In this document: positions 5,517 to 26,294 of the stretch, piece after piece
Layout of the letters: every line of letters begins with the position of its first letter
Position numbering within the stretch: the first letter of the stretch is position 1
Origin: a virus
Length of the DNA: 64,000 bases
IMG/VR virus record: IMGVR_UViG_3300027917_000019
Location: 32,001 to 96,000 of that record
Direction: 5' to 3' (one strand)
Position numbers and translations under genes: made by a program
Notes under the pieces: model-generated
The model's input: only the letters and a program-made list of their open reading frames with translations
Database searches by the model: none
What the model was told of the DNA's origin: nothing

Positions 5517-5517
5517 T

Positions 5518-6293: not shown

Positions 6294-6548
6294 ACGGTAA
6301 AGACTCGTGCCGGGGCGCCGCTGGCCCCGTAAAAAGCGGCAACCAATAACTGCAGATAACGCAGCCCTTCCTCTCGCGGCCTGATCGCGGAGGCGCTCTA
6401 TAGGTAACGTCTGTCAGTACCTAACCTAATTAGAGTGTCATTCAGAACTGACTTTGTCTTAATTTGAGCTTCTCTTAGTTATTCTACGCACGTCAACCCT
6501 TTACTTGAGCTTTTTTGTACCCGGGTTCGATTCCCGGCACCTCCACCA
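6264..6548 (+). ncRNA. ssrA: tmRNA, compact 285 nt, tag (A)ADNAALPLAA
   Basis: GGGGGTG/CACCTCC-ACCA with G3.U70; T arm CCGGG-TTCGATT-CCCGG; PK1 GGGGC/GCCCC plus GCCGCT/AGCGGC; ATAACT-GCA resume signal; tag frame 6352-6384. Confidence 0.95.
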
Positions 6549-6549
6549 A

Positions 6550-6624
6550 GCCTTAGTCGTATAATGGCAAATACTTCGCTTTCGTACTGCGAAAATGGGG
6601 GTTCGATTCCTCTCTAAGGCTCCA
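6550..6624 (+). tRNA. tRNA-Thr(CGU)
   Basis: GCCTTAG/CTAAGGC-TCCA; loop TT-CGT-AC. Confidence 0.88.
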
Positions 6625-6626
6625 CC

Positions 6627-6809
6627 ATGAAACTAACTGGTAGTAAGGCAATCTTTCGAGAGAAAGCTGGTGTGATCAGCGAAGGTCCCATATGGGTCTT
6701 TACCGACACTAAGGGTTGGCTATATCTACACGAGAGTTTCTTTGGACTGTTGTGGCAAGTACTAACTGAATGGCGACACGATCGCCACTTGGTTGGTTTT
6801 CTGCCTTGA
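6627..6809 (+). CDS. hypothetical protein
   Basis: 60 aa; ATG embedded in CCACCATG at the tRNA end. Confidence 0.6.
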   Translation: MKLTGSKAIFREKAGVISEGPIWVFTDTKGWLYLHESFFGLLWQVLTEWRHDRHLVGFLP

Positions 6810-6833
6810 CACACGTGAAATCGTAACTATACT
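6806..6833 (+). promoter_or_regulatory. sigma70-type promoter for Ro60 gene
   Basis: TTGACA-16-TATACT; SD AGGAG downstream. Confidence 0.7.
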
Positions 6834-6872
6834 GCACCCACTTGTCTCCCATGAAGGGAATAGGAGAATATC

Positions 6873-8483: not shown

Positions 8484-8519
8484 GAGGGGATGGTGACAGC
8501 CGGGAAAGACCGGCACTAA

Positions 8520-8595
8520 GCCTCAGTAGCTCAATGGCTAGAGCACCTGCCTTGTAAGCAGGGGGTTATGAGTTCGACTCTCATCTGAGGCTCCA
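8520..8595 (+). tRNA. tRNA-Thr(UGU)
   Basis: GCCTCAG/CTGAGGC-TCCA; loop CT-TGT-AA. Confidence 0.94.
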
Positions 8596-10443: not shown

Positions 10444-13400
10444 ATGAACCGATTGTACATTTCCACAGATCTGGTCAAGGCAGTGGGTGCTCGCTACGGT
10501 AAGACTGTCCCTCCCAAGGGTGCTCCTACTGATGCACCCGCTGTTCCTAAGGCTCCTGCTCCAGGTGCCGGCCAGGAAGTGGATTACGTACAATCAGACA
10601 AGCCACCCCCCGGTAACCTCGGAAGGACTGAGGGAGGCTATTGGCGTGTTCCTAAGGGGGCGGTGAGTCCCAAGTCTGGAAAGGTTGAAGACGAGAAGGT
10701 CAAGCGAGAGGCTGCCAAGGAGGAGATGTCCAAGGACCCTCTGAAGACAGATGAGGACCCTCCCAAGGAGGCAGATGTTGAAGGCGCTGCAAAGATCCAG
10801 GAGCAGGCTACACAGCCTGACGTAGATCCTCTCAAGGAGGGTGCTCCTGAGGGAGAGGATGGCCCTGCTCAAATGCAGGCTATGATTACTAGGGACATGC
10901 GGCAGCAGCTTGCTGACCTTGGTCACGATAAAGACGCTGTGGGACGTATGACTCCACAAGAAGCAGCGGACCACATAGCCTCTGGAAAGACTGTAGGTAA
11001 GGAGCCTGGTGGGGGTGCTCCTACCATCGCAGAGCCTGATAAGCCTTTTCCTGGAAAGGAACCGCTAACCCTCAAGGACCCGCAGGCTACGTTTGCTACT
11101 ATGGACCCCGAGGCACATGCCAGCACAGACCCCATGGGGCATTATGTCCACGCTGGAATTGCAGAGAAGCTTGGAGACAAGAAGCTTGCACACTTCCATC
11201 GTGAACAGGCTCGCTCAAAGGTTGGAGCGGAGGAAGAAGATCCTAACCGCCGTGGTATTTACCACCACGAGTTGGCTACTAAGCTTCAAGCTGCTGGAAT
11301 GCACGAGGAAGCTGCACACCACAGAGATGCTGCGGCACGTGCAGTCGAGGCTCGCGTGGCTGCTGAAGCTGCTACCCAAAAAGACGCATCTAAGGTTACA
11401 GATGTTGAAGGAATAGCTTCTAAGCGTCAAGCTGAGAAAATGAGGCAAGAGGCTGAGCTTGGTGTTGCGGATACTATGCTGAAGCCCCCTGCTGAAGGTG
11501 CGCCTAAGGCAGCAGAGGCTAAGGCTGAGCCACCTAGTGGTGCTGAGCCCCCTGCTCCTAAAGGATCAGCTACAACGACACAACAAGACAAGGGGCAAAC
11601 TCAGCCTGGTGTTGATACGCTTAGACAACAACAAATGGCCGCTCAGAAGCGCGCTATTGAGGAATTCCATGAGGCAGGCCAGAAGCATGAAAAGGCTTCC
11701 GCTGACTATAAGAAGAAAGTTTCTGAGTATGAGGCTAAGCTCAAGGAACATGCGGATGCTAGAAAGGAGCACGCTGCTGACTTGAAGAAGGTTAGCCAGA
11801 AGCTGAAGGATGTTCGTGATAACAAGCCTGTAAAGGACGACAGTGAGCTTAACAAGTTGAAGAAGAAAATGAAGGCTGTTCGTATGGAGGCGGCTCGTCA
11901 TAAGGACGAGCTGTCTCCTCAGCATGAGAAGCATGCGAAGGCTATTGAGAAGGTTAAGCAGAGTATTGCTAGTCACCAAAAGAAGCTCAGCGCTGCTGAA
12001 AAGAAGTTGAAGGCCCACCAAAAGAAGAAGCTAGTTCGTGGTGAGATGTCAAAGGATGCTTTTGAAACTGCGTCTAAGAATCACCACGCGGCAGGTGTTA
12101 AACTACAAGATAAGTACGATAAGCTAAAGCAGAAGGGCGCAGATCTGTCTGCTCAACACAAGGTCATTAAGCAAGCCAGCGACTCTTACAAGGCAGACCA
12201 CAAGAAGCAGCAAGTTACCTATCGTGAGAAGCTTCGTAAGATGCAGGAGAAGCACGACAAGTTGAAGGAAACTATCGGCGCCAAGCACGCCAAGGCTGTA
12301 GAAGCACACAAGAAGAAGCTAAAGACCGCTCAAGCCGCTGTGGACAAGCATAAGGCTAAGAAGGATAAGCTCCCTGAGAAGCCCAAGAAGGTTTCAGGAA
12401 AGCCTCCGGAAGCTCCGGCTGGTAAGCCTAAGTCTGATGAAGAGAAGATGGCACACAGCGAGCACCAGGCAAGTGCTCGTAAGATGCGAGAGAATATCGA
12501 ATCTCACCTGCGGGATAACCCGGATCTGGACCCGGCTGCTAAGAGTAAGTTGATGAAGCTTCATGAGATGGCAGCACGGCATGAACATATCCAAAATGTT
12601 CCCACCTCAGACCAGAAGAAGGAGATGAGAGACTTGAGTTCTCGTGCTAAGGAGCACGGAGCCGATCGTCATCACTCAGAGGTCAAGGCTGAGCAGGATG
12701 CAAAGGCTGCTAAGGAGCAAGAAAAGGCTGACAAGCAGAAGGCTCGTGAAGATAAGGAATTCGCGCGCAAGCGTGCTGACGCTGAAAAGCGTGTACAAGC
12801 AGAGCATGCTAACACCCCCAGACCTCCTGAGAATGAGTTTGAACAGGCAGAGGTACTACAACACGCAGGAGCAGCCGAAACGGCTCTTGAAAATATACAG
12901 TCACATCTCGATGATGGAGATCTCGATGACGAGACTAGGGCTAACCTAGAAGAGATGGTTTCTAAGCTGGAAGAACATTCAAAGCTTGATACGGTTCCCA
13001 CAGAAGACCAAAAGGCAGAACTGAAGAAGATTCAGAGTCTTACAAAGCAACACGGTAGTAAGCACTTCCACGATACCGCTGAAGGCAAGCAGGCTGTTGC
13101 CGGGGCTGCTCCTATTAAGAAGGAGTCTGCACCTTCGCGTGTCGCGACGACTGGAAGGCGTGGTACTGGTTTGTCTAGCATCTATCGCAGGGCCTCTGCG
13201 TTTGGAAGTAAGATGGGAGCGGCAGCTGCATCCCCGTACGGCGGTGCCGGTTCGTTTGCAGACACTCTAGACTATGCCGGCCAAGGTGCAGCTACAGGCG
13301 GTCATTATCTCCTGAACAGTGGGAAGAAAAAGCCCACCAGTAAGCCAGTAGGAAAGCCTGCAGGAGATACAAAGGTGTCTCCTTCGGAAGAAAAAGACAT

Positions 13401-13494
13401 GGCCAGGTTGTCTAGTAAGCGTGCAAAGGCGAAAGACCAGTCCAAGACTCAGAAGAGTATAAACAGCAATCCTAGTCTTTGGGTAAGAAAGTAA
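10444..13494 (+). CDS. large K/A/H-rich coiled-coil protein, putative internal head protein
   Basis: 1016 aa; long coiled coil, duplicated ~85-aa domain, terminal LYI/LWV motifs. Confidence 0.8.
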   Translation: MNRLYISTDLVKAVGARYGKTVPPKGAPTDAPAVPKAPAPGAGQEVDYVQSDKPPPGNLGRTEGGYWRVPKGAVSPKSGKVEDEKVKREAAKEEMSKDPLKTDEDPPKEADVEGAAKIQEQATQPDVDPLKEGAPEGEDGPAQMQAMITRDMRQQLADLGHDKDAVGRMTPQEAADHIASGKTVGKEPGGGAPTIAEPDKPFPGKEPLTLKDPQATFATMDPEAHASTDPMGHYVHAGIAEKLGDKKLAHFHREQARSKVGAEEEDPNRRGIYHHELATKLQAAGMHEEAAHHRDAAARAVEARVAAEAATQKDASKVTDVEGIASKRQAEKMRQEAELGVADTMLKPPAEGAPKAAEAKAEPPSGAEPPAPKGSATTTQQDKGQTQPGVDTLRQQQMAAQKRAIEEFHEAGQKHEKASADYKKKVSEYEAKLKEHADARKEHAADLKKVSQKLKDVRDNKPVKDDSELNKLKKKMKAVRMEAARHKDELSPQHEKHAKAIEKVKQSIASHQKKLSAAEKKLKAHQKKKLVRGEMSKDAFETASKNHHAAGVKLQDKYDKLKQKGADLSAQHKVIKQASDSYKADHKKQQVTYREKLRKMQEKHDKLKETIGAKHAKAVEAHKKKLKTAQAAVDKHKAKKDKLPEKPKKVSGKPPEAPAGKPKSDEEKMAHSEHQASARKMRENIESHLRDNPDLDPAAKSKLMKLHEMAARHEHIQNVPTSDQKKEMRDLSSRAKEHGADRHHSEVKAEQDAKAAKEQEKADKQKAREDKEFARKRADAEKRVQAEHANTPRPPENEFEQAEVLQHAGAAETALENIQSHLDDGDLDDETRANLEEMVSKLEEHSKLDTVPTEDQKAELKKIQSLTKQHGSKHFHDTAEGKQAVAGAAPIKKESAPSRVATTGRRGTGLSSIYRRASAFGSKMGAAAASPYGGAGSFADTLDYAGQGAATGGHYLLNSGKKKPTSKPVGKPAGDTKVSPSEEKDMARLSSKRAKAKDQSKTQKSINSNPSLWVRK

Positions 13495-13497
13495 CCC

Positions 13498-14247
13498 ATG
13501 AAGCTATACATCGATTTGAATAAAGCAGTCAGTCAGACACCCAACACTGGGGTAGATACTCCGTTGGAAGACCAATCTGTTGAAGAGTATAAGACCTCCT
13601 TTGCTCGCCGCCCGGTAGGTGTAGCTGCTGGCGAAGAAAATGATCCTGATGATCCCAAGGTTGGTAAGCGTTGGAATCGCGCTTCTGACACTGAGGTATC
13701 CGAGCGTAAGGCTAGACAGAAGAAGCGTACAGCAGACGCAGCAGCGGAAGGGTTGATTAAGCCTCCAATTAAGAAGGCACAACCTTTTGATGGTGGGTTT
13801 ACAAGAGAAGAAGCTGAGCGTGCTGCCGACAGTTTGAAGGTTGATTTTAGTGAAGAGAAGTTTGGTCTTAGTGAATTTGTCGCAGGAATTAACGTAGAGC
13901 GCGAGCATGCTGACGTTAGTAAGGATGCTTCAACACTAGGTAAGATTACTCTTGCACACCTTCGTGAAACTCCAGACTACTACAAGAAACTCAAGCAAGT
14001 AGAGAAGAGTGTTGATATTCTAAAGAGTATTAACAACAAGCTTGCTACCGAAAAAGCTAGGCGAATGCCTAACATACGAGAGCAAGAGTTTTTGATGGAT
14101 GTCCTTGGGTATTCTCAGGAAGACATCACCAAGGGTGTTGCTGTCATTACCGGACGTAATAGGCGTTTGTTCAATAGGTGGTTGTGTGATAGACTAGCTA
14201 ATTCCACCTCTGACCTGCTAAAGTCCGTAGGAGCTGACATTGGCTAA
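13498..14247 (+). CDS. DUF5661-like head-associated protein
   Basis: EFVAGINVEREHAD...KITLAHLRETPDYYKKL. Confidence 0.7.
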   Translation: MKLYIDLNKAVSQTPNTGVDTPLEDQSVEEYKTSFARRPVGVAAGEENDPDDPKVGKRWNRASDTEVSERKARQKKRTADAAAEGLIKPPIKKAQPFDGGFTREEAERAADSLKVDFSEEKFGLSEFVAGINVEREHADVSKDASTLGKITLAHLRETPDYYKKLKQVEKSVDILKSINNKLATEKARRMPNIREQEFLMDVLGYSQEDITKGVAVITGRNRRLFNRWLCDRLANSTSDLLKSVGADIG

Positions 14248-15973
14248 CGACTACGAAAGTTGGAATGACCATATCAAGCAGTGGCGCGATGCAACTGCAA
14301 ACGTACCCGTATTGGTTCGTGAAGACATTCTGAAGGGGAAATATCGTCCTAGTAAGCCTACAGAGGGTATTCGTGCCCTCATGGAAGATCCGCTTTCCAT
14401 TCAATACTCTCTGGGGTATAAGGATCGCAAATATTCTCTTACGTACGATGTACTAAAGCAGACGGTCCAGAATCTAGCAATTTTGTCTGCAATCGTACAG
14501 ACGCGCACTCATCAGGTAGCTTCGTTTGCAGTACCGTTTAGATCTTCAAAGAGCCTTGGGTATGTTATCAAGCACAAGGATTCAACCAGAGAGACCACTA
14601 AGAGTGAGCGCCAGATGATCCAGGATATGGAGAAGTTCATCTATAATTGCGGCGCAGCAGAGCCAAATCCACACAACAAAGGCTTTGTAAGAGATGATTT
14701 TGAAACATTCCTGAAGAAGATTGTAAGAGACTCTCTTGTTTACGACCAGTGTTGTTTTGAAATTGTTCCAGACCGCTCTGGACAGCCATATGAGTTCATG
14801 GCTGTAGATGCCAGCACTATTAGGTTGGCTGCACAGAATCAGGTATTCGGTCCCAATAATACATGGTTTGACCGTCCACCTGTGGCAAATAACAAAGCCC
14901 GCCATACGAATCTCTCTAATCCGTACACTACCTTGCGTATGTATGGTAAGGATGCGCGAAAGAAGGCGGCGTTCGTACAGCTTATAAATGGGCAGATTGA
15001 GAACGTTTTCGCTAGAGATGAGCTTGCTTTTGGTGTGCGTAATCCACGTTCTGACATCTACATCCAAGGGTACGGATACGGTGAGATTGAGCAGCTGATT
15101 ACCATTATCACTGCACATCTGTATGCTGAAGAATACAACAGACGTTTCTTCATGCAGGGCAGCGCTCCCAAGGGTTTGTTGAATTTGAAGGGTGATGCTA
15201 TGACGCCGGACCAGCTTGAAGGTTTCCGACGTCAGTGGCGTGCTAATCTTGAAGGTGTTGAAAACGCTTGGCGCACTCCCATTCTTCAGGCCGAACAGGG
15301 TATTGATTGGATTAACCTCAACCCCACTAACCGTGAAATGGAATACGGGCAGTGGATGGAATATCTAATTAAGATTACTTGTGGAGTGTTTCTTATCGAC
15401 CCTGCTGAGTTGAACTTTGACCTTGCCGGAGGAGTTCAACAGACCCCCTTGTTTGAGTCCAGTTCTGAGTGGAAACTCAAGGCATCTCGTGACAGGGGTC
15501 TTCGTCCGCTTCTTCGCTTCATTGCGAAGATGATCAATGATAATATCATCGCAAAGATTGATGACCACTTTGTCTTTGATTTTGTAGGACTTGATGAGCT
15601 TACTGAGCAAGAAAAACACGAGCTTCGCAAGGAGCAGGTCGCTTCCTACATGACTCTTAATGAGATTCGTGATGCAGAAGATCTGCCGCGCGTGCTGGGT
15701 GGAGATATGATTCTCAACCCAACATATACTCAAGCACTTCAGGTCATGCAGCAGATGCAGCAGGCTGAGCAGGCACAACAAGGTCAAGAGCAGCCTGGAC
15801 AAGCACCACAGCAAGCTGCCCCTGCCGGTGGAGAAGAAGAGAGCGCTCCTGAGCCTTCTCCAGACTACTCCGACAACTTTACGAAGTCTTTGTCTAGAGA
15901 TAGGCCCATTCTGGAGATTTCTGTAGGGGAAGATTATGACGAGTGGCTAGAGGTATGGCGTGATGACTCGTAA
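14240..15973 (+). CDS. portal protein
   Basis: FLKKIVRDSLVYDQ, VDASTIR, GVRNPRSD..GYGYGEIE, RRFFMQGSAPKG, MEY..W..YLIK..CGVFLIDPAE (Twort/SPO1-like portal). Confidence 0.95.
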   Translation: MANDYESWNDHIKQWRDATANVPVLVREDILKGKYRPSKPTEGIRALMEDPLSIQYSLGYKDRKYSLTYDVLKQTVQNLAILSAIVQTRTHQVASFAVPFRSSKSLGYVIKHKDSTRETTKSERQMIQDMEKFIYNCGAAEPNPHNKGFVRDDFETFLKKIVRDSLVYDQCCFEIVPDRSGQPYEFMAVDASTIRLAAQNQVFGPNNTWFDRPPVANNKARHTNLSNPYTTLRMYGKDARKKAAFVQLINGQIENVFARDELAFGVRNPRSDIYIQGYGYGEIEQLITIITAHLYAEEYNRRFFMQGSAPKGLLNLKGDAMTPDQLEGFRRQWRANLEGVENAWRTPILQAEQGIDWINLNPTNREMEYGQWMEYLIKITCGVFLIDPAELNFDLAGGVQQTPLFESSSEWKLKASRDRGLRPLLRFIAKMINDNIIAKIDDHFVFDFVGLDELTEQEKHELRKEQVASYMTLNEIRDAEDLPRVLGGDMILNPTYTQALQVMQQMQQAEQAQQGQEQPGQAPQQAAPAGGEEESAPEPSPDYSDNFTKSLSRDRPILEISVGEDYDEWLEVWRDDS

Positions 15974-16823
15974 CGTATTACCCATAAGGCTATTGATAGC
16001 TCTTGATACTTCTGCTAGAATTCCTAACACCACTAGTGTATCTAAGAGTGTTGACTCCGCTATGGAAAAGGTTCCTGAAAAGGACAAGATTTCGAAGCCA
16101 TTCCAGTCTGAAGCTCAGCGGGGTAAATTCTATGCCATGGCAGAACAGGGTAAGATCTCTGAGGAAACTGTGGAAGAGTGGGAGCATGCAACTCCAAAAG
16201 GTAAGAAGCTCCCAAGGAAGAAAAAGATGAATAAGGCTCTAACAGACGCGATTGAGATTTTGAAGGCAGTTGCCTGTATGCCAGTTTCTGGCGACAAGCT
16301 AGAGAAGGACGCTACTGAGAAGGGCGTTTCTAAGGCGGCAGGGGCTCCTCCAGTGGGCGGTGAAGAGCGCAGGGTGTCTAAGCCTGTAGCTCCAAAGGTG
16401 GCCCCGGGAGCGTCTCCTGTGGGCGGCGAAGCTAAGAGAACGCCTGGTGCTTCAAGTTATGGTTCAAAGGGGACTAGCTACAACCCCATGAATAAGAGTG
16501 CTGAAGATGAGGATGTTGACAAGGCTCTTAAGTCTTCGGCAATTGTAGGCATTGCCCGCCGCATGCGGCTGCACGACTATTCTGCCGGCGTTGCTGGTGA
16601 TCAGCCCGTTATCGGTACAAACCGTGTGAGGAACGATCATGAACCTCCGGTAGTTCCTGTTCGTAGGGTTGAGACTCCAGAGCCTACGAAGGTTGTTGTA
16701 GACACATTTGTAGATTGTGAGCAGTGTGGTTGCGTATATAAGAGTTTAGGCAAGTGCCCTAAGTGTTCTAAAATTTCAGAATTGGGCGGCGAAGCGATTC
16801 CGTTTCATTTCCGAGGTCGTTGA
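15960..16823 (+). CDS. putative head protein with PFxSxAQR domain and C-terminal zinc ribbon
   Basis: PFQSEAQRGKF...EWEHATPKGKKLP; CEQCG...CPKC. Confidence 0.7.
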   Translation: MMTRNVLPIRLLIALDTSARIPNTTSVSKSVDSAMEKVPEKDKISKPFQSEAQRGKFYAMAEQGKISEETVEEWEHATPKGKKLPRKKKMNKALTDAIEILKAVACMPVSGDKLEKDATEKGVSKAAGAPPVGGEERRVSKPVAPKVAPGASPVGGEAKRTPGASSYGSKGTSYNPMNKSAEDEDVDKALKSSAIVGIARRMRLHDYSAGVAGDQPVIGTNRVRNDHEPPVVPVRRVETPEPTKVVVDTFVDCEQCGCVYKSLGKCPKCSKISELGGEAIPFHFRGR

Positions 16824-17233
16824 TGTTGTACCTGCGTCACGATCTCATAAAGGGTGACTCTTCCACCAAGCCTGAGAAGGCTAAGAAAGAAGGAGGAGCC
16901 TCATCCAAAACCGGTGAGCAGCGTGGAGGCAAGTATGTTGCCCGCGTTCAAACTGGTTATGAGAAGGACGGTAGTCCTCGATATAAGTACTTTGATACTC
17001 TAGAAGAAAGAGATAAGTACTTACAGAGTCGTGGTACTAGTGGTGACGGAAAGAAGCGTCTTAAGGACAAGCTCACTGATGAGCAAAAAGAAGCAAAGCA
17101 AAAACAGAAAGTTAGCCATGGTAAGGTAGAGTCCGGCAAGCTTTTTGTAGCCAAGGACAAAAAAGAAAAGAAGGAATCGGAGGAAGATACTAAGAAGAGT
17201 ATTTCCGTTTTCATCTGGAGGCTAGAAGAATGA
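16823..17233 (+). CDS. putative internal head protein
   Basis: MLYLRHDLIKG; GGKYVAR...RYKYF. Confidence 0.75.
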   Translation: MLYLRHDLIKGDSSTKPEKAKKEGGASSKTGEQRGGKYVARVQTGYEKDGSPRYKYFDTLEERDKYLQSRGTSGDGKKRLKDKLTDEQKEAKQKQKVSHGKVESGKLFVAKDKKEKKESEEDTKKSISVFIWRLEE

Positions 17234-17703
17234 GTCATTTCCCGCGTAAGCCTGTTCGTTTCATTGAGGCGAATGATGAGCTATTGGACATACAAAAGGC
17301 CGTAGCCTCAGATATGCGTACTTCCACAGATTATGGTGGGCCTACTGAAACTGCATACCCTGCACAGTCAGAACCGCAGTATCGTACGCCCCATGATCGT
17401 GTTAGCGGTAACGAGATGTTTCGTAGGTACCCAGACGGAAGCCTTGATTATGCATATGCTAAAGACAAGGTAGTAGAAGCTGTACATAAGGTGCGTGATG
17501 GGGGTGTCTTGACGTCCGTGGAGCGTGTAGCTCTTAGTTGCATGTTTCCTCACATGTTTTCTGGTGTAGACTCTGGTGTATCTGCAGCAGTTCGCGCTGT
17601 AAATCTACGCCTTTCTGCAGAAGAGTCTATGAAGGTTGCCTTGTTGGTTGCTAAGCATCTCAGCCAGGAAATGTCCTTCATGCACTCTAGCCACGCACGA
17701 TGA
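17230..17703 (+). CDS. hypothetical head-region protein
   Basis: Coupled overlaps; IQKA motif. Confidence 0.75.
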   Translation: MSHFPRKPVRFIEANDELLDIQKAVASDMRTSTDYGGPTETAYPAQSEPQYRTPHDRVSGNEMFRRYPDGSLDYAYAKDKVVEAVHKVRDGGVLTSVERVALSCMFPHMFSGVDSGVSAAVRAVNLRLSAEESMKVALLVAKHLSQEMSFMHSSHAR

Positions 17704-17915
17704 AGATTAGGACAAACCTATCTCCTGAACAGTTGGAGAATATTGCTAAAGGCATTAAGGTCGCTGCTGATAAACAGCGCGTTAGACCGTATGTTCCGGA
17801 AAACAACGCAGAGTCTGAGTTGCTTAGAAAAGCAGACAGTGCCCTTGATCTAATGCTAGACAGTTTACAAGAAGAAGTAGCAAACATATTGCTAGATAAG
17901 GAACACAATGAGTGA
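17700..17915 (+). CDS. hypothetical head-region protein
   Basis: Coupled overlaps; IAKG, LRKA. Confidence 0.7.
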   Translation: MKIRTNLSPEQLENIAKGIKVAADKQRVRPYVPENNAESELLRKADSALDLMLDSLQEEVANILLDKEHNE

Positions 17916-18366
17916 ATGGTGGAGTCCGAAGCCTCGCCGCGAATTGAACAAGTCCGGCCTCTTTTCCTACGATGAGGGAGAAGTGAAGATCGAAAAGAGT
18001 CAACCTAATCGCTGGAAGCAGCAACGTGACGCTGACGGAACTCCGCACACTCGTGGTGGTCCCAGCGCGCTTGCGCCTCCTCTTGCAGGCCCTGCGTTGT
18101 TCATTGCTGACATGGAGAAGGCCACCTCTGGAGATGATGGTCCACAGCCGAGGATAGAAGACGCGGAAAAGGTCGTTAAGGCATACTTGGAACTTTCCCA
18201 AGATCTTATCGCTAAGGGATTTGGGGATACTGTTAGAGCCGCAGGAAAGCAAATCAGTGCTGGTGCTAAGGAAGGTGCTAGTGCTGTCAATAAGCTGACA
18301 AATGTCGTTTCAAAGGTAAGTCCTGGAGCAAAGTCTTGCTCCGCAGATGACGACGACGACGAATAA
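17908..18366 (+). CDS. hypothetical head-region protein
   Basis: LNKS, IEKS, LFIADMEKA, VVKA, IAKG. Confidence 0.75.
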   Translation: MSEWWSPKPRRELNKSGLFSYDEGEVKIEKSQPNRWKQQRDADGTPHTRGGPSALAPPLAGPALFIADMEKATSGDDGPQPRIEDAEKVVKAYLELSQDLIAKGFGDTVRAAGKQISAGAKEGASAVNKLTNVVSKVSPGAKSCSADDDDDE

Positions 18367-18373
18367 GGGTTGA

Positions 18374-21055
18374 ATGCCGCTAACGAAGGGTAAACTGGAG
18401 AAGCTACGCCAGGCGGTAAAGCTTCATGTGAACTGGTTTGTCGCGGCTATCTTAGGAGAGGACGCGCTTACAGCACAGGAGCGTGCTGAGCTTGAGAAGT
18501 TTAAGAAGCTTCCTAAGCAGGCTCTAAGCTTAATTGAGCGTGGATTTGTCCTTGGGCGTCTTAAGTCCATCTTCAAAAAGAAAGAATGGAAGGGCCTTTC
18601 TTGGGAAGACTTTATAGATTTAGCCAAGCGTCAATCTCTTTCACCTCTAGAGAAGCTCGTATTGCAGCAGGCTAAGCTGTCAGCGGCTCAGCACATCAAA
18701 GGTCTCGCCGACGACATCGCCGCTGGCGTTTTCAACCAGCTAGCAAAGACTACCAATCAGGTCGTCAGCGAGGCGTCTCTCAAACAAATCATCAGTGATG
18801 AAGTTCAGCTTGCAGTTCTAGAGAAGAAGTCCTACACACAACTCGCTTCAAGTCTAGCGGCAAAGACAAAGACGCAGTATGGGTACAAGTGGGAACAAAT
18901 CTCTAGGACAGAACTCCACTCTGCTAAGACTCACGGACTTGCTCAGGCGATTATCAACAAGGTAGATGTCTACAAGCACAGTAAGGGCATCGATTCCATG
19001 GTTTCCCTCGTTCCAAAGCCTGGAACTTGTCCAGACTGTGCAAGGCACTATCTAGATAAGAGCGGAAATCCTAGGGTATTCTCACTGAGACAGTTGATGG
19101 GGGCAGGGTCTAACGCTGATCCTGGTGTTGTTCATAAGAAGACAAAGGGTGTGCATTTGCAATGGAAGACTACACTTCCGCCGTTGCACCCAAACTGTCG
19201 TTGTGAGTTGGTGTTCATTCCTCCTGGGTATACGTGGGTGAACGCACAGCTTACACTGACCAATCCAAGCGTACTAAAGAAGGCCATCGGGGATTCTAAG
19301 CTTAGTGGAACAGTAAAGCCGCAAGGGCCTGCGAGTGCAAAGGCATCTGGACCTGTCAATCCTCCAACTATCCCCGGTATCAAGAGTCCTGGGCAGGCTG
19401 ACAACGGTGGCCGTCCTGCGGCTCCTAAGTCTGCTTGGGCAGGCATGGAAGTTGACTACATTCCTAAAGCAGGGACAGCAGAGAAGCCTGAGGGTGCTGT
19501 TGGAGACACTGAGTCTAGTTGGGTTGTCCCGAAGGGCTTTAGACCGGGTAAGGCTCTCACCCCTGAGCAGGAAGCTCAGAAGAAGCAATTGGAGAAGCAA
19601 GCAGCCATTGAGTATGGTAAGGCAGACAATCCGCACGCTGAGATTCTAAGCCACCTAAGCAAGGGTGAGTTTACCGATATGCGCCAGCTTTCTGGGGATG
19701 AAGCTGGGCTATCAGGGATGGCTACATATCTTGTGCAGTTTAAGGATGGCCCCCGAGGGCTGTTGAAGGCGACTACTAAGAAGCTATATGCCAACTCTGG
19801 AGACCCTGAGCTGCTTCAAATTGGTGAGGGAACAACTATTCCTGGAACAGGCCCACAACGCGAAGCAGCTGCATACAACATGCATATGCAGTTTGGTTTG
19901 AAAGACCATGTTCCTCCTACAACAACGCGAATACACAATGGGGCTAATCACTCCATTCAAAGTTGGGCAGAAGGATTTGGACCTGCCAGAAGCATGCTCA
20001 GTTCTGCAGAAAAAGAAGAATCTGGCGTGGTGGTTGCTGGAGAAGGGGCTAAGAAGTCCACAGCAACTAATGAAGTAAAGAGCTTGTTGGAGAGGTGCCC
20101 TGCAGATAAGAAGGAGGCTCTAAAGCAGAAGCTCTTCGAAGGGGCTACTATGAACATCGTCTGCAACAACGGAGACGGGCATAACGGTAATATTCTCGTC
20201 AAAGAAGACTTCAGTGATGTTCGCTTCATAGACAACTCCGCTAGTTTTGGGCACGGCATGGTAGGTGTGTCTAGTGAAATCCACGGAGACATGCACAACG
20301 CTGGAATGAAGCTGAAAGTTCCGGACCACCTCATGGAGAAGTTCTCAAAGACTTCTTACGGAGATATACAAAAGGCTACAAAGGGACTTGACGATAGAGA
20401 ATCTGCTCAGACGTTTCTTCGTATGCGTTACGTTCAGCATTTGATGGATACTGAGGGACATCTTGATTTTGAAAAGTTTCGTCCAGAAGTCATGGGTCCC
20501 GGTGGTGGTGGTCCCCGTATTGGTATGTGGAATGGCTCAGGCTTTGAACAAGTTCTTGATTATGCAAAGAGGCGTGAGAAGGGAGAGCTTGCGCACGATC
20601 AGTTTGTTGCGTTTGCCAAGGATTTCATATCCTCTGCACAAGATGAGAACCACCCCGACAACAAGTCTGTTAGTGCTATGTTTGCTAAACAGTCTCCGCA
20701 AGATGTTCTTATTAGTGGGGAGGAGTTTTACGACAAGCATGTGGTTCCTAACTCTGAGGCAGGAGAACACCCTTCTGTAGCTGCTGAGCGTAAGAAGATG
20801 GAGCGCGCACATACACTACAAGACGCTCCCGGCTCTTCGGCTCCTTCTGGAAAGAAGTCTGAGTTTGAACCAAAACGCACACAAGTCTCTACCAAAGAGT
20901 GGATGGCTGCTTCAAAACCAGTGAGCACTAAAGCACAGAGCCCTAAAGCACACAAGACTTCTGCAGAACCAATTGGCACTAAAGCAGCCAAGCCTTCACG
21001 CATTAAGAAGTCACTATCTCTCTACATTGACGACCCAGGTCGACCTTGGTCTTGA
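18374..21055 (+). CDS. MuF (SPP1 gp7-like) minor head protein fused to a PI3K/PI4K/HipA-like kinase domain
   Basis: ISRTELH, CPDC, LPPLHPNCRCEL; then GLLK, REAAAY...VPPT, SIQSW, NGDGHNGNILV, FIDNSASF. Confidence 0.85.
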   Translation: MPLTKGKLEKLRQAVKLHVNWFVAAILGEDALTAQERAELEKFKKLPKQALSLIERGFVLGRLKSIFKKKEWKGLSWEDFIDLAKRQSLSPLEKLVLQQAKLSAAQHIKGLADDIAAGVFNQLAKTTNQVVSEASLKQIISDEVQLAVLEKKSYTQLASSLAAKTKTQYGYKWEQISRTELHSAKTHGLAQAIINKVDVYKHSKGIDSMVSLVPKPGTCPDCARHYLDKSGNPRVFSLRQLMGAGSNADPGVVHKKTKGVHLQWKTTLPPLHPNCRCELVFIPPGYTWVNAQLTLTNPSVLKKAIGDSKLSGTVKPQGPASAKASGPVNPPTIPGIKSPGQADNGGRPAAPKSAWAGMEVDYIPKAGTAEKPEGAVGDTESSWVVPKGFRPGKALTPEQEAQKKQLEKQAAIEYGKADNPHAEILSHLSKGEFTDMRQLSGDEAGLSGMATYLVQFKDGPRGLLKATTKKLYANSGDPELLQIGEGTTIPGTGPQREAAAYNMHMQFGLKDHVPPTTTRIHNGANHSIQSWAEGFGPARSMLSSAEKEESGVVVAGEGAKKSTATNEVKSLLERCPADKKEALKQKLFEGATMNIVCNNGDGHNGNILVKEDFSDVRFIDNSASFGHGMVGVSSEIHGDMHNAGMKLKVPDHLMEKFSKTSYGDIQKATKGLDDRESAQTFLRMRYVQHLMDTEGHLDFEKFRPEVMGPGGGGPRIGMWNGSGFEQVLDYAKRREKGELAHDQFVAFAKDFISSAQDENHPDNKSVSAMFAKQSPQDVLISGEEFYDKHVVPNSEAGEHPSVAAERKKMERAHTLQDAPGSSAPSGKKSEFEPKRTQVSTKEWMAASKPVSTKAQSPKAHKTSAEPIGTKAAKPSRIKKSLSLYIDDPGRPWS

Positions 21056-21079
21056 CTCCTCCCACATAGGTGATATCAT
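21052..21079 (+). promoter_or_regulatory. possible promoter
   Basis: TTGACT-16-TATCAT with extended TG, 6 nt before ATG 21086. Confidence 0.4.
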
Positions 21080-21085
21080 ACTACC

Positions 21086-21310
21086 ATGCCACGAGAACAC
21101 GAACACGAACTCTTCGACAATACAAAAGGTAAGTCTTTAGGCAAAGCCTGGTGGAATCCTGACACTGAGAAGATTGAGTGCAGCAACCACACTGTGTTGA
21201 AGATGATTTTCAACAACCACTCTCTTGCTTCTAAATCTGACAAAGCTTTGATTAGCAATCTAGCTCGGGCCTTCAAGTCAGGTTACATAACTGCGAGGTT
21301 GGTCAAGTGA
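21086..21310 (+). CDS. small protein after MuF-kinase (immunity candidate)
   Basis: 74 aa ORF immediately downstream. Confidence 0.65.
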   Translation: MPREHEHELFDNTKGKSLGKAWWNPDTEKIECSNHTVLKMIFNNHSLASKSDKALISNLARAFKSGYITARLVK

Positions 21311-21825
21311 GTGACTATATTCGTGTGTTTGAACTGAAGGGATTGGATGAGAACTTTGATGACGATCTGTCAAAGTCAATTCTAGAAATTCACCTAGATA
21401 AAGCATTGCACCCACAAGAAGCTGTTGAGAAGTCTCTGTACAACTTCGATTTAGATACGCCAGACGGCGTAGATCGCCTGTTAGAGCTTCTCCCAATACT
21501 AGACCCCGAGATTATAAACGAGGTTTATCAAGAGATTTTTCCTGGGTATCCTGTGGATACCCTCGCTCCGCGTATGGCTCGTTTAGAGTTGCGGGGTTAT
21601 TTAATGGACTACTTGGCGAATAATGGAACACAAGAAGGACAAGGAGCTGGAGAAGAAGCGGCAACTGCAGGAGGACCTGGATCGCCTGGCGAAGAGCCGC
21701 GATCTGAGGTACCAGGAGCCCAGCCTTCTGAGGAAGCTGGGGCAGCGGGTGTTCCTCCAGAACCTGAGCCTGGTGCCCAAGCTGACGAAGCTGAAGTTGT
21801 TGAGCCTGGGGCTGCACCCAGCTGA
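21307..21825 (+). CDS. hypothetical head-region protein with acidic tail
   Basis: LSKS, LDKA, VEKS motifs. Confidence 0.7.
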   Translation: MSDYIRVFELKGLDENFDDDLSKSILEIHLDKALHPQEAVEKSLYNFDLDTPDGVDRLLELLPILDPEIINEVYQEIFPGYPVDTLAPRMARLELRGYLMDYLANNGTQEGQGAGEEAATAGGPGSPGEEPRSEVPGAQPSEEAGAAGVPPEPEPGAQADEAEVVEPGAAPS

Positions 21826-21925
21826 TATAGATTATCTCCTCAACAAGAAACATCTTGTTGAGGTTCGTGACCCTGTCACCAAAATATGCTACTATTCAGT
21901 CAATATTGATCCAGTAGGTGAGTGA
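21623..21925 (+). CDS. hypothetical protein overlapping the previous gene in +1 frame
   Basis: ATG start, protein-like composition, stop overlaps the next start. Confidence 0.6.
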   Translation: MEHKKDKELEKKRQLQEDLDRLAKSRDLRYQEPSLLRKLGQRVFLQNLSLVPKLTKLKLLSLGLHPADIDYLLNKKHLVEVRDPVTKICYYSVNIDPVGE

Positions 21926-23273
21926 TACGTTGCCTGTAGAGGATAACATCAACAAGGCGTTTGGCCTACCTGAAGGAATAGACGCGGACCACGAGTATGT
22001 TTACCGCTCGGGGGAACGTGGTATCTATGATTTCTGGTACAAGGACCGCGCAGGAAACTACTGGAAATATACTAACGCACCGGAGGGCCATCAGGATTAC
22101 GATCCGTATGGTGGCGCTGCGATGCTAATAGCCGACCAGCCCATGCCTCATACCGCTCCTCAGTTTTATTCCGAGGATGGTAGAAAGCTCCATGTGGCTG
22201 TCCCGCAAGGGATGGAACTTACAAGAAACGAAGCATACGACCCTGAGAACCCGCGTAGTGTTTGGTACGGCGTGTACCAATCTGAGGACGGCGAGCCTCG
22301 CTTTGTCTACTACGACGCCGACGTGCGAGAGAATCTAGACCTCTGGGTTCAATATATGCTTCGTGTAACCGACGCTGGCCTAGTGTCTTATCGTAAGTAT
22401 GCATCTAAACTCTTTGAGTCTCCACACCCTAAGGACCGTATTATCGGTGTGATGCTCATGCTGGTCGACCAGGGTTTCTACGATGCATTTGAACTTGCGC
22501 AGGCTAGAGTTGAAGACGTGGAGTATGTCGACAACACCATAAAGTTGTTGAGCCGTAAGTTGGTATGTGACATTGGGCTGGTCGACTTTTTCACGTCAAT
22601 AACGAGTAAGCGCATTCCCAGCGATCCTCTGTTTGTACTAGACACGGTACACGGTAAAGAGCCGCTTGGCGAGCGTCATTTCTACAGCATTTTCAAGGCT
22701 TTGAAGGTGTCTCCACATGTTCTTTTGTACTGGCATGCGTCACAAATGTTTAGTCGTATTGTGCACAGACTTGCTGCCAATCATACACCTCTTGAAGAGG
22801 TAGAAGAGCGTGCATACGCAGAACTTGCTTTGGCATTGAACACGGTAGAAGACGTCACCCACCTTGTTGACTACAAGGTGAAGGAGGCGTTGTTGCGCAA
22901 TTATGAACCAATTGAGGAGCCTGAAGTAAGTGGTGAATCAACCCCTGCGCAAGACGTGGCAGAACAAGAGCCCGTTGCAAAAAGCATTCTTCGTACTGGT
23001 GGTGATAGCTTCGGCGTTGCTACCGTTTGGTCTGATCTTGTTGCTCGTAGACCCGATGAGCAGGAATTCAGTGTCTGGCTTCATGCTACGCCTTTGCACG
23101 ATACTACGGAGGAAGAGCAGGCAGAGATTGAAGAACAGCTAGTCGCTCAGCAGGAAGAAGCAGATCAGGAGGCTCCTCCTGAAGGGGGTGGTGGAGGTCC
23201 TGAAGCGCCCAATATGGGTACGTCTCCTACTCCTTCCGAAGGAAAGTTGCCGGCAGGAGAAGCTAGCGAATGA
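21918..23273 (+). CDS. topoisomerase IB-like protein, apparently inactive
   Basis: TopIB-like order of motifs with catalytic positions substituted. Confidence 0.6.
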   Translation: MSDTLPVEDNINKAFGLPEGIDADHEYVYRSGERGIYDFWYKDRAGNYWKYTNAPEGHQDYDPYGGAAMLIADQPMPHTAPQFYSEDGRKLHVAVPQGMELTRNEAYDPENPRSVWYGVYQSEDGEPRFVYYDADVRENLDLWVQYMLRVTDAGLVSYRKYASKLFESPHPKDRIIGVMLMLVDQGFYDAFELAQARVEDVEYVDNTIKLLSRKLVCDIGLVDFFTSITSKRIPSDPLFVLDTVHGKEPLGERHFYSIFKALKVSPHVLLYWHASQMFSRIVHRLAANHTPLEEVEERAYAELALALNTVEDVTHLVDYKVKEALLRNYEPIEEPEVSGESTPAQDVAEQEPVAKSILRTGGDSFGVATVWSDLVARRPDEQEFSVWLHATPLHDTTEEEQAEIEEQLVAQQEEADQEAPPEGGGGGPEAPNMGTSPTPSEGKLPAGEASE

Positions 23274-24235
23274 TTTTCGACGCACTAGAAGACATAGTCA
23301 AGGCTCGCAAGGCTAAGGGGCTGGATAGTTGGAAGAAGCTAGATCACCTGAAGGACAAGCTTCAAGGTAAGCAAGCTTCTCACATCACATTCACCACCTG
23401 CTATCCTGGACAGGAGGGAACTAAGAAACACCTCGGTTCTGCTTCTGGAAACCTTCATTTTGTGCTTGGGTACGTTAGCCCTGGTTTTCATGTTGCTCCC
23501 TATCATTGGCAACTAGTCGACCCGAACCTAACTGACCAAGAAGCAGCGGCAAAGAAGCACCCCACAAACCCCAGATACTGGAAAGACTCAGGACTACCGA
23601 TTGAAGATGAGGGAGACTTTGACCTCGGTAAGCCTCACAAGTTGTCACAGAATAGTGCCAACTCAGTGGCAAGAGCTTCTGTTAGAAAGACAGGGGCTAT
23701 GCAGGTCAAGTCTGGGTATGGAAAGTATGTTGCTGTCCCTGGAGAGGGGGCTGTCTACTCTCTTTCTAACGGGCATGTTTACAAGTGGGACGTTATCAAG
23801 GAATCTTTCTTTGCAGCAACTCAGCCTGATGTCACAGAGGCTATGAACGAGTCTGAGGAGGCTCCTGAGGTAGAAAAGAGTCTTAGAGGTCCCAGGGAGC
23901 CTTTCAGTGACTTTGTCTATCCTCTTGTGCGTAGACACTTCCCGAAGCCTGGATCTGTCTTTGACGCCGGTTCTGTAAAAGTACTGGTGAAATCAGACCG
24001 CGTAGTATTTTTCGATGAAAACAAGGACCCTACATACATTAAGGTGTTTGACCGTGTGTATGACCACTTTGATTTGAAAAAAGGTGGTGACATCCACCCA
24101 TCTATCCTGCTACAATTCGCAGTACACTATCTAGGCGTAAATCAACAAGAACTTGCTCAATTTGTTCACAATGAGGAAACTACAACTGGTGACGATTCTT
24201 CTCCTAATGTAATACAGAGGAACTCTAGTGGATAA
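23270..24235 (+). CDS. hypothetical head-region protein
   Basis: 321 aa; IVKA, VEKS, LVKS. Confidence 0.75.
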   Translation: MIFDALEDIVKARKAKGLDSWKKLDHLKDKLQGKQASHITFTTCYPGQEGTKKHLGSASGNLHFVLGYVSPGFHVAPYHWQLVDPNLTDQEAAAKKHPTNPRYWKDSGLPIEDEGDFDLGKPHKLSQNSANSVARASVRKTGAMQVKSGYGKYVAVPGEGAVYSLSNGHVYKWDVIKESFFAATQPDVTEAMNESEEAPEVEKSLRGPREPFSDFVYPLVRRHFPKPGSVFDAGSVKVLVKSDRVVFFDENKDPTYIKVFDRVYDHFDLKKGGDIHPSILLQFAVHYLGVNQQELAQFVHNEETTTGDDSSPNVIQRNSSG

Positions 24236-24449
24236 TGCACTCTGTTGCACGAAATGTGGTGAAGTCGTCATTAAGTCGATGGGTACTTCAACGAAAATCC
24301 GTGCTAAAGTATTAGTGGTTAGAGATAACCAAACATTTGCTGTATGTAAAGGGTGTGACAGCGAGATACCTGTACCGCTCGTAATGAATGAAACTATGGC
24401 AAAGGCTTTAGGAAAAACTGCCAAGCTAAGACTTTACGTTAGAAAATAG
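24228..24449 (+). CDS. zinc-ribbon protein
   Basis: CTKCG...CKGC; ends LRLYVRK. Confidence 0.75.
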   Translation: MDNALCCTKCGEVVIKSMGTSTKIRAKVLVVRDNQTFAVCKGCDSEIPVPLVMNETMAKALGKTAKLRLYVRK

Positions 24450-24452
24450 TGC

Positions 24453-24481
24453 TTGACAACCTGTTTAGCCTAGACTAAACT
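24453..24481 (+). promoter_or_regulatory. sigma70-type promoter
   Basis: TTGACA-17-TAAACT. Confidence 0.65.
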
Positions 24482-24508
24482 TATCAAACGGTTGAATGAA
24501 CTCCAAAT

Positions 24509-24544
24509 AGGGAGATCACCTTCGGGTGGTTTCCCTTTTTTTTT
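24509..24544 (+). terminator. intrinsic terminator
   Basis: AGGGAGATCACC-TTCG-GGTGGTTTCCCT followed by 8 T. Confidence 0.9.
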
Positions 24545-24551
24545 AGGTTTT

Positions 24552-25295
24552 ATGGGCTGGATCGATAACGATACTTTTGAATTCTGGATGCCGGCGCAAG
24601 CTATTTCTTTGACGAAGTCTAAGAAAAACGGTGCTGACGCAGAAGGACGACGTTGGGTTCAGGGAATTGCTTCTACTAGCTCTAGAGACCTACAAGGCGA
24701 GATCATTGAACAGCAGGGGATTGATTTCTCTTATTTTGTAAAGCACGGCTTTTTCAACTGGGACCACAAAGAAGGTCCTGATAATAAGGTTGGAGAGCCT
24801 ACTGAGTGTAAACTCACCAAGAACGGGCTTTGGGTCAAGGGTTTTCTTTGGAAGAATAAGGCGAGAGCAGACGACATCTGGGAACAGATGAACTCTATGG
24901 CTTCTTCAGGTTCTTCCCGCAGAATGGGATTCTCCATTCAAGGAAAAGTCAAGAGACGCTCAGGGAACGTTATTAAAGAGTGTTGGATTCAAGACATAGC
25001 AATTACGGCTTGTCCTGTGAATACCTCCACTTGGGCTGAAATCGCCAAGAGCCTGTCTGCACAGACCTGGGATCTCAGCAAGTCCCTAGAGGAAGATGAG
25101 GAAAAGGCGCTTAGCGCGGGCGGTTCTCCGCTGGTTCCTGAATCTCTCGAAGGGAAACAAAAGGACGTCAAGACATTGGATAAGAGTCTTACGTTCGAAG
25201 AATCTGTGGCATGGATTAGTTCCACCACTGGTATGCCTGACGACGCAGCAGAAGCAGCGGCTAGGGTAATTTTCTCAGTACTCACTAAGGAGTGA
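24552..25295 (+). CDS. prohead (maturation) protease
   Basis: GIAST..RDLQGE, FNWDH, GLWVKG, RMGFSIQG, IAITACPVN..TW; start moved past the terminator. Confidence 0.93.
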   Translation: MGWIDNDTFEFWMPAQAISLTKSKKNGADAEGRRWVQGIASTSSRDLQGEIIEQQGIDFSYFVKHGFFNWDHKEGPDNKVGEPTECKLTKNGLWVKGFLWKNKARADDIWEQMNSMASSGSSRRMGFSIQGKVKRRSGNVIKECWIQDIAITACPVNTSTWAEIAKSLSAQTWDLSKSLEEDEEKALSAGGSPLVPESLEGKQKDVKTLDKSLTFEESVAWISSTTGMPDDAAEAAARVIFSVLTKE

Positions 25296-25302
25296 AACCG
25301 AC

Positions 25303-26274
25303 ATGAGCGATCAGACTGTAAAGCAGGACGACCTCGCGAAGGCACTCGCTGGACTTCAGGAAATTGCAAAGGGTCATTCTTCTCGTGGTACCGCTACCAC
25401 GAAGGTAGAATCCATGCGCGATTCTGGGGCTGGCGCAGGTTCTGATGCGGGATCTACTCAGGTCTATCACACGCCGTCAAACTCTGAACCCGGAAGCTGG
25501 GCTGGTTCTACTGCTAGAACCGTCCCGGAAGACGGTGCTACCGATTCTGTTGGTCCTGATGGAACAGACTATGTAGCTCAGGGTAAGGTGATGAAGTCCA
25601 TCATCGAAAAGATGGCTAAGGGCCTTCCACTTACTGCGGACGAAGCTTCCTTCTACGCAGCTATTGCTAAGGGCGGCATGCCCGACTTCTTGAAGAAGGA
25701 CGACAAGAAGGACAAGGACGACGCTGAAAAGTCCGTTAAGAAGTCAGATGATGACGACGCGGACGACAAGGATGACAAGATGGGTAAGTCTTTGTCTGAC
25801 CACGCAGCGGAAGACGACACAGTTTCTAAGGGTCTTGAAGTCTCTGAGTTCTTGGCTGGATTCGCATCAGTCATTCACAAGAGCCTCCAGTCTACTGAAG
25901 AGCGTGTTGTTGCTCGCGTTCTCAAGGCACTCGCTAGCGATGCTGAAGGTACGGGCGAGTTCAACAAGTCTCTTGCAGAGGCGGTTGGTCGTCTTGCAGA
26001 GTCCGTGGCGGCAGTTTCTCAGCGTGTAGATCAGGTTGAGTCTCAGCCTGCGCATGCTCCGCGCGCTGCTCACAATGTACAGGTCCTCGAAAAGGGCTCG
26101 TATGATGGTCCTGCGGGGGGAGAACCCCTCAGCAAGGCTCTAGTAGCTGCAACACTTGTCGAACTAGTACAGCGCGGTGAAGCTACCACGCAAGACGTTC
26201 TAAAGTTCGACTCATCCCAGACTCTTTCACCTCGACTTGAGCAGAAGGTTCGTGCTGCTCTCGGCGGGCGCTGA
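25303..26274 (+). CDS. putative scaffold protein
   Basis: Between protease and capsid; acidic, coiled coil, more than 10 K|[SAG] motifs. Confidence 0.8.
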   Translation: MSDQTVKQDDLAKALAGLQEIAKGHSSRGTATTKVESMRDSGAGAGSDAGSTQVYHTPSNSEPGSWAGSTARTVPEDGATDSVGPDGTDYVAQGKVMKSIIEKMAKGLPLTADEASFYAAIAKGGMPDFLKKDDKKDKDDAEKSVKKSDDDDADDKDDKMGKSLSDHAAEDDTVSKGLEVSEFLAGFASVIHKSLQSTEERVVARVLKALASDAEGTGEFNKSLAEAVGRLAESVAAVSQRVDQVESQPAHAPRAAHNVQVLEKGSYDGPAGGEPLSKALVAATLVELVQRGEATTQDVLKFDSSQTLSPRLEQKVRAALGGR

Positions 26275-26294
26275 TAGAATAGGAGTAATCAGAG

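Follow-up and report, generated by a model that had tools for sequence, protein, structure and literature searches.

A PI4KII/HipA-like kinase domain fused to a MuF-like phage head protein: a candidate capsid cargo with a linked partner gene

Why would a phage join a kinase-like domain to a protein of its own head? The question is raised by a gene in a 64,000-nucleotide (nt) stretch of viral DNA, hereafter the window, which covers bases 32001–96000 of the 165,819–base pair (bp) IMG/VR virus record IMGVR_UViG_3300027917_000019, rated 98% complete. The gene encodes a MuF-like head domain continued by a kinase-like domain (the MuF-kinase) and is followed by an open reading frame (ORF) of 74 amino acids (aa). 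An earlier note, made from the letters of the DNA, had described it as a MuF head protein carrying a releasable kinase-like effector with an immunity-sized gene downstream. We lean slightly toward a related reading: the kinase would be a capsid-loaded cargo that is trimmed by the prohead protease and ejected, and the small downstream gene would encode its dedicated partner. The coordinates of all features are collected in Table 1.

The kinase-like domain was modeled with AlphaFold2 using an 81-sequence alignment, which gave a predicted local distance difference test score (pLDDT) of 93 and a predicted template modeling score of 0.92 for aa 401–759. This model was used instead of a single-sequence model of the region, which was unusable (pLDDT of 39). 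An exhaustive structural search recovered 37 chains at Z of at least 8, and all top rows were kinases. PI4K type II alpha came first (Z of 19.1 over 251 residues, root mean square deviation of 3.8, 16% identity), followed by Fam20C (14.8) and Fam20 relatives, CtkA (14.2), HipT (12.2), and HipA (12.1) and, lower, by actin-fragmin kinase (11.3) and CotH (10.1). Foldseek agreed with a kinase fold (E of 2e-6, probability of 1.00), and the profile of the family matched PDB sequences of Fam20C (7e-5) and PI4K2B (3.5e-4). Single-sequence signals were fainter: aa 401–759 alone matched the Pfam models HipA_C at 0.03 and PI3_PI4_kinase at 0.17, the window’s protein scored 12.2 bits against the PF00454 cut-off of 27.1, and phmmer with the kinase domain found no match among PDB sequences. 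Two homologues exceed the Pfam PI3_PI4_kinase cut-off (P0086, 36.8 bits; P0029, 40.1 bits). From the model and the searches together, we regard the kinase fold of aa 401–759, of the PI3/4K-HipA kind, as settled and close to certain. A distant relative of 1553 aa (P0092) carries several kinase-like domains in one polypeptide (HipA_C, HipA_2, PI3_PI4_kinase with four matched stretches, and Fam20C).

The substrate is not readable from the fold. PI4KII alpha is the best structural match by a clear margin, and some homologues weakly match aminoglycoside, choline, and glucosamine kinases; the domain could accordingly be pictured as phosphorylating a host membrane lipid, sugar, or metabolite at entry, as PI4K type II does. 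We consider this improbable, since neighbors in fold do not fix a substrate and CtkA, HipA/HipT, actin-fragmin kinase, and Fam20C, which are found in the same neighborhood, are protein kinases.

Conservation of catalytic residues was assessed in the alignment of 81 homologues (20 to 58% identity). The short motifs listed in the earlier note (GLLK, REAAAY, VPPT, DGHNGN at ~20174, and FIDN) are all where it had placed them. Of 18 positions conserved at 90% or more, 17 are kept in the window’s copy, including all six core catalytic residues. The residue after D620 is histidine in 43 and asparagine in 29 homologues, and the IDN of PI4K2B aligns with the I-D-N triplet of the phage kinase. The reading of the catalytic loop as DGH rather than the usual DRH was also accurate. 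Judged by the alignment, DGH is an ordinary, tolerated variant and no defect, because arginine is kept at the second position in only 50 of 81 homologues (glycine in 9, glutamine in 8, and alanine in 5); the nine relatives with glycine share DGH, and the nearest relative has DAH. The conservation of these residues argues that the family is probably enzymatically active.

The N-terminal part of the protein was assigned on different grounds. The MuF motif reported in the earlier note is present at aa 268–279, and a second motif upstream, T-E-x-H at aa 179–182, is likewise invariant in the close-homologue alignment (A2). PHROG families 4728, 595, and 115 (head morphogenesis/minor head protein) match aa 127–284 with E of 4e-5 to 5e-4. 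In tblastn searches, aa 1–286 showed 24 to 29% identity to stand-alone genes of SP-10-like and SPO1-like Bacillus phages and of Lysinibacillus phages, one of which is annotated as a minor capsid protein. The Pfam and TIGR MuF models align with the signature motif only, and Phage_Mu_F reached E < 0.01 in 5 of 14 close homologues (2e-4 at best). On the basis of motif, position, and PHROG matches, aa 1–300 are a divergent MuF-like domain that scores below the curated thresholds; the proposed head-protein identity stands in this form, with the position of the gene in the head module as added evidence. In some homologues (P0005 and P0106, of ~1230 to 1260 aa, and locus L027:6001–9771), a Hint/intein insert of ~300 aa (Pfam Hint, 2.8e-7) lies near H-P-x-C-x-C; since inteins insert there, the motif appears to be functionally critical.

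To what extent is the fusion a family trait? An exhaustive search of 1.84 billion representatives yielded 92 clusters (defined at 50% identity), 80 of them at E ≤ 1e-10. Most homologues are 800 to 1000 aa long with the kinase domain at ~400 to 760, and therefore it is the MuF-kinase fusion itself that is conserved. The clusters come from metagenomes, and all database members of the family are unnamed or “hypothetical”; P0004, with 60% identity, is among the closest. The sole match among 185,579 species genomes was a 7.7-kb contig binned into a Halanaerobiales metagenome-assembled genome (locus L056, JBEPXG010000062.1). This contig carries both the kinase and the small partner gene and is probably phage DNA, and the hint it gives about a host is weak.

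MuF proteins fused to enzymes have been reviewed, the enzymes including RelA/SpoT, PBECR, 2H, ART, nucleases, and zeta-toxin-like P-loop kinases (PMC3482391, PMC5576092, PMC5512222), and the reviews also catalogue a truncated Ser/Thr-kinase domain among polyvalent proteins. A PI4KII/HipA-type kinase is absent from these catalogues, the text of Jamet 2017 (PMC5576092) nowhere uses the word “kinase,” and a full-text literature search found no paper on a MuF-fused kinase of this type. The strategy, a MuF-fused enzyme, is known; the enzyme family is one without prior study.

Gene neighborhoods were taken from IMG/VR loci with the same head module. The head module of the window is ordered as portal, five small genes, MuF-kinase, the 74-aa gene, three genes, protease, scaffold, and capsid, and the order portal–small genes–MuF-kinase–small gene–TopIB-like gene–protease–scaffold–capsid is conserved in more than 25 loci. 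The same kinase is retained in all 27 loci in which this head module has a MuF-kinase. A sister clade that shares the portal and protease (loci L030–L036, e.g., L030:5977–11689) has a stand-alone MuF of 300 to 400 aa and no kinase; its MuF is followed by a 1430- to 1990-aa protein with Topoisom_I (TopoIB) and InPase domains, of the polyvalent-protein kind (PMC5512222). A 451-aa gene of the window (21918–23273) is homologous to the TopoIB part of that giant protein.

These neighborhoods bear on whether the kinase might serve head assembly by acting on scaffold, portal, internal, or other phage proteins, either in the infected cell or within the prohead. The location of the gene among head-assembly genes would fit such a role, as would the presence of Fam20C and CotH among the structural neighbors; CotH acts on spore-coat proteins and Fam20C on secreted proteins. 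However, cultured relatives build their heads with a MuF protein without any kinase, and so does the sister clade. The kinase is thus an accessory, which fits a cargo better than a core assembly factor, and we hold an assembly kinase to be rather unlikely.

We next consider the small gene. In the loci with the same head module, the kinase gene is directly followed by an ORF of 75 to 98 aa in which the motifs W-W-D-G and S-G-Y recur. Sixteen of these ORFs were combined into a profile, which matched 21 of the 27 loci that have the kinase; the other six loci end inside the kinase gene. The small gene is therefore found directly 3′ of the kinase in every untruncated locus (21 of 21) and in none of 28 kinase-less loci, the sister clade included; the 74-aa ORF of the earlier note is a real, conserved gene. 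In relatives, 4 to 30 nt separate the kinase stop codon from the start of the small gene, and in the window the stop codon of the small gene overlaps the GTG start of the next gene. Because of these short gaps and the overlap, we take the small gene to be a part of the late head operon and no independent unit. The promoter-like sequence that had been credited to it is present and does end 6 nt before its ATG. Its standing as the gene’s own promoter was rejected, since such sites number 6 in 7.5 kb compared to 6.2 expected from shuffled sequences. Through an AGGTGA 13 nt upstream of the ATG, the gene could instead be translated from the transcript of the operon.

The small ORF matched no PHROG, Pfam, NCBIfam, PADLOC, or PDB-sequence family, and no antitoxin, immunity, or defense family was matched. 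ESM Atlas structural rows for the small protein were weak; one of them was HipA N-terminal-like (template modeling score of 0.55), a lead that was dropped because PF13657 gave no signal in the genome at E ≤ 10. In a mirror-tree comparison, the pairwise distances of the small gene tracked those of the kinase best (r of 0.67); the partial correlation with the kinase was 0.49 for the small gene and 0.45 for the next gene, so that this coevolution test is not specific. The strict linkage of the two genes suggests that the small gene encodes a partner of the kinase. That it is a classical immunity gene, as had been proposed, appears improbable: no known antitoxin or immunity family was matched, and the phage has no integrase.

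The last point concerns the kind of phage. The portal shares 42 to 44% identity with its counterparts in SPO1-, Twort-, and SP-10-like myoviruses of Firmicutes. Searches for tyrosine and serine recombinases (Phage_integrase and Resolvase) found no match in the 165.8-kb genome, while both were positive in control genomes. From the portal identity, the lack of a recombinase match, and a set of tRNA and tmRNA genes, we conclude that the phage is probably a large, uncultured, virulent, distant relative of Herelleviridae.

MuF polymorphic toxins are borne by temperate phages and combine exchangeable C-terminal toxins with immunity genes that protect the lysogen (PMC5576092, PMC12226406). Read in these terms, the kinase would arrest the growth of competitors or the host, and the 74-aa protein would protect the phage-carrying cell. 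The layout of a MuF N terminus, a C-terminal enzyme, and a small downstream gene is indeed that of a MuF toxin (PMC5576092), the small gene strictly co-occurs with the kinase, and HipA/HipT-like kinases, with a structural Z of ~12, are toxins. However, the 98%-complete genome encodes neither an integrase nor a resolvase, the portal resembles those of virulent-type phages, and the C-terminal domain has not been exchanged among the 27 related loci, being stably inherited across the clade. The small gene, moreover, shows neither an immunity, antitoxin, or defense family match nor a HipA N-domain signal and is translationally coupled into the head operon. The polymorphic-toxin framing of the earlier note is accordingly abandoned as a poor prospect. 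A head-packaged, ejected effector is a better frame, since there is no integrase and the kinase is vertically stable in the clade.

If the kinase is packaged, it may also be released, and the sites that could allow this were noted earlier. The L-K-K↓A site, the Pro/Gly linker, and the I-K-K↓S-L-S-L-Y-I tag (aa 877–885) are in place, and the K↓A and K↓S sites and the tag are conserved in homologues. All 54 full-length homologues have a hydrophobic-x-K-[ASG] site 25 to 35 aa past HPxCxC, including those whose flanks have diverged. At the other end, the last 32 aa of 25 of these 54 contain K-[SGN] with L-[YWF]-[ILV] no more than four residues further on, compared to 1.2 expected from shuffled tails. 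This tag is often trailed by a D/N-P...F/W element and is missing from the most distant subfamilies.

The same elements recur in other head proteins. Hydrophobic-x-K-[SAG] occurs 82 times in head-module proteins compared to 40 expected from shuffling; outside the module, it occurs 172 times compared to 163 expected. The scaffold alone accounts for 14 copies, and the capsid protein has one ~29 residues from its start. A terminal L-[YWF]-[IVL] string is carried by 5 of 18 head-module proteins and by 4 of 209 other ORFs (Fisher p of 2e-4), and it invariably lies outward of a K↓[SAG] site. Within window positions 10444–27746, such strings are located at the N termini of the genes at 10444, 13498, and 16820 and at the C termini of the genes ending at 13494, 21055, and 24449.

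T4 and giant phages have a prohead-protease motif and a removable capsid-targeting peptide, and the A511 capsid protein is cleaved at Lys↓Ser. Trimming and targeting of this kind are exemplified in giant phages by the ejection proteins of SPN3US (PMC10052503). A search of the literature on the specificity of prohead proteases of SPO1/Twort-like phages returned nothing usable. The pattern seen here is the one expected of a prohead-protease recognition motif joined to a removable capsid-targeting peptide, and it supports, though it does not prove, such an arrangement. Proteolytic release of a ~62-kDa fragment (aa 304–879) is plausible from the placement of the sites; for cleavage at both flanking sites, we put the chances as even.

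Taken together, we infer the following course of events. The protein would be made late alongside the other head proteins, and its MuF-like domain would position it in the procapsid near the portal; incorporation into the prohead would proceed via this domain and perhaps also via the short C-terminal K-S-L-x-L-Y-I tag. That the MuF-kinase is present in the virion we hold with good confidence. The prohead protease would cut at Lys↓Ala after the MuF domain and at Lys↓Ser before the tag, and the freed ~62-kDa kinase would ride in the capsid, exit with the DNA, and modify a host target by phosphorylation as soon as the next infection begins. Delivery into the host is presumed for MuF-fused enzymes (PMC5512222). 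The small downstream protein would most likely be a dedicated partner of the kinase, such as an inhibitor, a chaperone, or a loading factor, rather than an immunity protein protecting a lysogen. In ready-made delivery the system would resemble T4 Alt, and in chemistry T7 gp0.7.

A more specific version, in which an entire clade of SPO1-like phages, large and uncultured, uses a removable C-terminal tag to load a PI4KII-like kinase and keeps this kinase silent until ejection through a dedicated partner of 75 to 90 aa, is offered tentatively and seems to us less likely than its alternatives combined. The tag would then consist of K↓S-L-[YWF]-[ILV] and the following D/N-P...F/W element and would be cut off by the prohead protease.

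Several observations weigh against the cargo reading or against parts of it. A tblastn search of 50,697 phage records with the kinase domain (E ≤ 1) and with a DRH-type homologue found the kinase in no cultured phage. The window’s protein scores 17.8 bits with PF04233 (Phage_Mu_F; cut-off of 29.6) and 15.7 with TIGR01641 (cut-off of 39.65), and a profile comparison with SPP1 gp7 (hhalign) was weak (E of 0.006, probability of 6%) and confined to the T-E-x-H motif. The kinase fold itself harbors several sequences resembling the K↓[SAG] motif, including one at K465, and therefore accessibility, not the motif alone, must decide where cuts are made. The Lys465 equivalent is followed by proline in 62 of 81 relatives and by alanine in the window (19766–19771), which creates L-L-K-A, a look-alike of the protease motif, at the ATP-binding lysine.

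Two further points concern activity. The window’s Gly-rich loop reads D-G-P compared to G-N-G in the family, with Pro460 in place of a glycine found in 76 of 81 relatives, and the arginine of DRH is absent; either may reduce activity. With the change from Lys-Pro to Lys-Ala, they raise the prospect that this copy has drifted into a pseudokinase or a structural cargo within an otherwise enzymatic family. We doubt that this is so, since the window’s copy keeps all but one of the highly conserved positions, with every core catalytic residue among them, and relatives also carry DGH or DAH.

Table 1. Features of the MuF-kinase locus, in window coordinates.
Feature	Coordinates	Strand	Basis
MuF-kinase fusion gene	18374..21055	+	Single open frame, 893 aa, translation table 11
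MuF-like minor head domain (aa 1–300)	18374..19273	+	PHROG, motif, tblastn
MuF signature P-P-x-H-P-x-C-x-C (aa 268–279)	19175..19210	+	H272, P273, C275, and C277 invariant in close-homologue alignment (A2)
Candidate maturation site L-K-K↓A (aa 301–304)	19274..19285	+	K303 and A304 invariant in 14 close homologues
Pro/Gly-rich variable linker (aa 305–400)	19286..19573	+	Low-complexity, indel-rich in A2
Atypical kinase domain (aa 401–759)	19574..20650	+	AlphaFold2 model, structure and profile searches
ATP-binding Lys K465 (GLLK)	19766..19768	+	K in 78/81
Helix-C Glu E497 (REAAAY)	19862..19864	+	E in 80/81
Catalytic loop D-G-H-N-G-N (aa 601–606)	20174..20191	+	D601 81/81, H603 79/81, N606 79/81
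Metal-binding I-D-N (aa 619–621, FIDN)	20228..20236	+	D620 81/81
Lys/Ser/Pro/Ala-rich C-terminal tail (aa 760–876)	20651..21001	+	Poorly conserved, variable length
Candidate site I-K-K↓S and terminal L-Y-I tag (aa 877–893)	21002..21052	+	K879 and L883 nearly invariant in A2
Promoter-like hexamers TTGACT-16-TATCAT, TG before −10	21052..21079	+	10/12 matches
Conserved 74-aa partner gene	21086..21310	+	16-member alignment (A3) of small ORFs
Portal	14240–15973		Pfam 2.8e-23, PHROG 5e-59
Prohead protease	24492–25295		PHROG 4e-53
Scaffold	25303–26274		Head module

The start of the window (246–8595) carries 13 tRNA genes and a tmRNA gene. Among them are a tRNA with a CUA (amber-reading) anticodon at 246–318 and the tmRNA gene at 6264–6548, whose tag is ADNAALPLAA.

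A phage enzyme that is delivered ready-made can redirect the host ahead of all phage gene expression, and few enzymes of this sort have been characterized. A conserved family of head-anchored kinases would extend the list of known injected activities to the phosphorylation of proteins (or lipids). The same family offers a clean test case for how capsid cargo is addressed and released, having one anchor domain, two conserved candidate cut sites, and one short tag. Should the kinase indeed be loaded by its tag and kept silent by its partner, it would represent an undescribed class of injected phage effector and a readable capsid-loading code.

Compared to known systems, the locus shares with MuF-fused effectors and toxins an N-terminal MuF-type head domain, a C-terminal enzyme, a small gene directly downstream, and a presumed delivery with the phage DNA. 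Unlike MuF polymorphic toxins, it comes without an integrase, its C-terminal domain is not polymorphic in the clade, and its MuF domain falls below the Pfam threshold. Structural matches of the PI3K/PI4K kind also occur in BFVD, in “phage head morphogenesis domain” proteins and a fusion to an HK97-type portal, as well as in actinophage ART proteins of 1100 to 1500 aa and in proteins of haloarchaeal tailed viruses. These virion-protein domains are alike in structure, have no sequence similarity to the MuF-kinase family that tblastn detected in 50,697 phage records, and bear automatic names only.

Among enzymes, PI4KII alpha/beta (4pla, 4hnd, and 4wtv) are the nearest solved fold and share the IDN form of the metal-binding motif. 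The phage kinase differs from them in its low sequence identity (16%), its phage head context, and its catalytic loop, which is D-x-H-x-x-N as in PI3K, PI4KIII, and HipA, whereas the PI4K2B alignment has DRGNDN. HipA/HipT and Helicobacter pylori CtkA are bacterial members of the same structural group (Z of 12 to 14), and the weak Pfam match to HipA_C points to them as well. HipT pairs with a small protein, HipS. The whole genome yielded neither a HipA N-terminal domain nor any sequence resembling HipS, the features of HipBA and HipBST, and, unlike HipA/HipT, the phage kinase has no helix-turn-helix antitoxin and its partner gene lies downstream rather than upstream.

For the proposed route into the cell, the closest parallels are T4 Alt, the T4 internal proteins, and the SPN3US ejection proteins (PMC10052503), all of which are packed into the prohead and, after the protease has trimmed them at a short motif, ejected. 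As in T4-type capsid targeting, the candidate address peptide is short and terminal and sits beyond the cut site. In contrast, Lys↓Ser/Ala/Gly is the candidate motif here, and a tag may be located at the C terminus.

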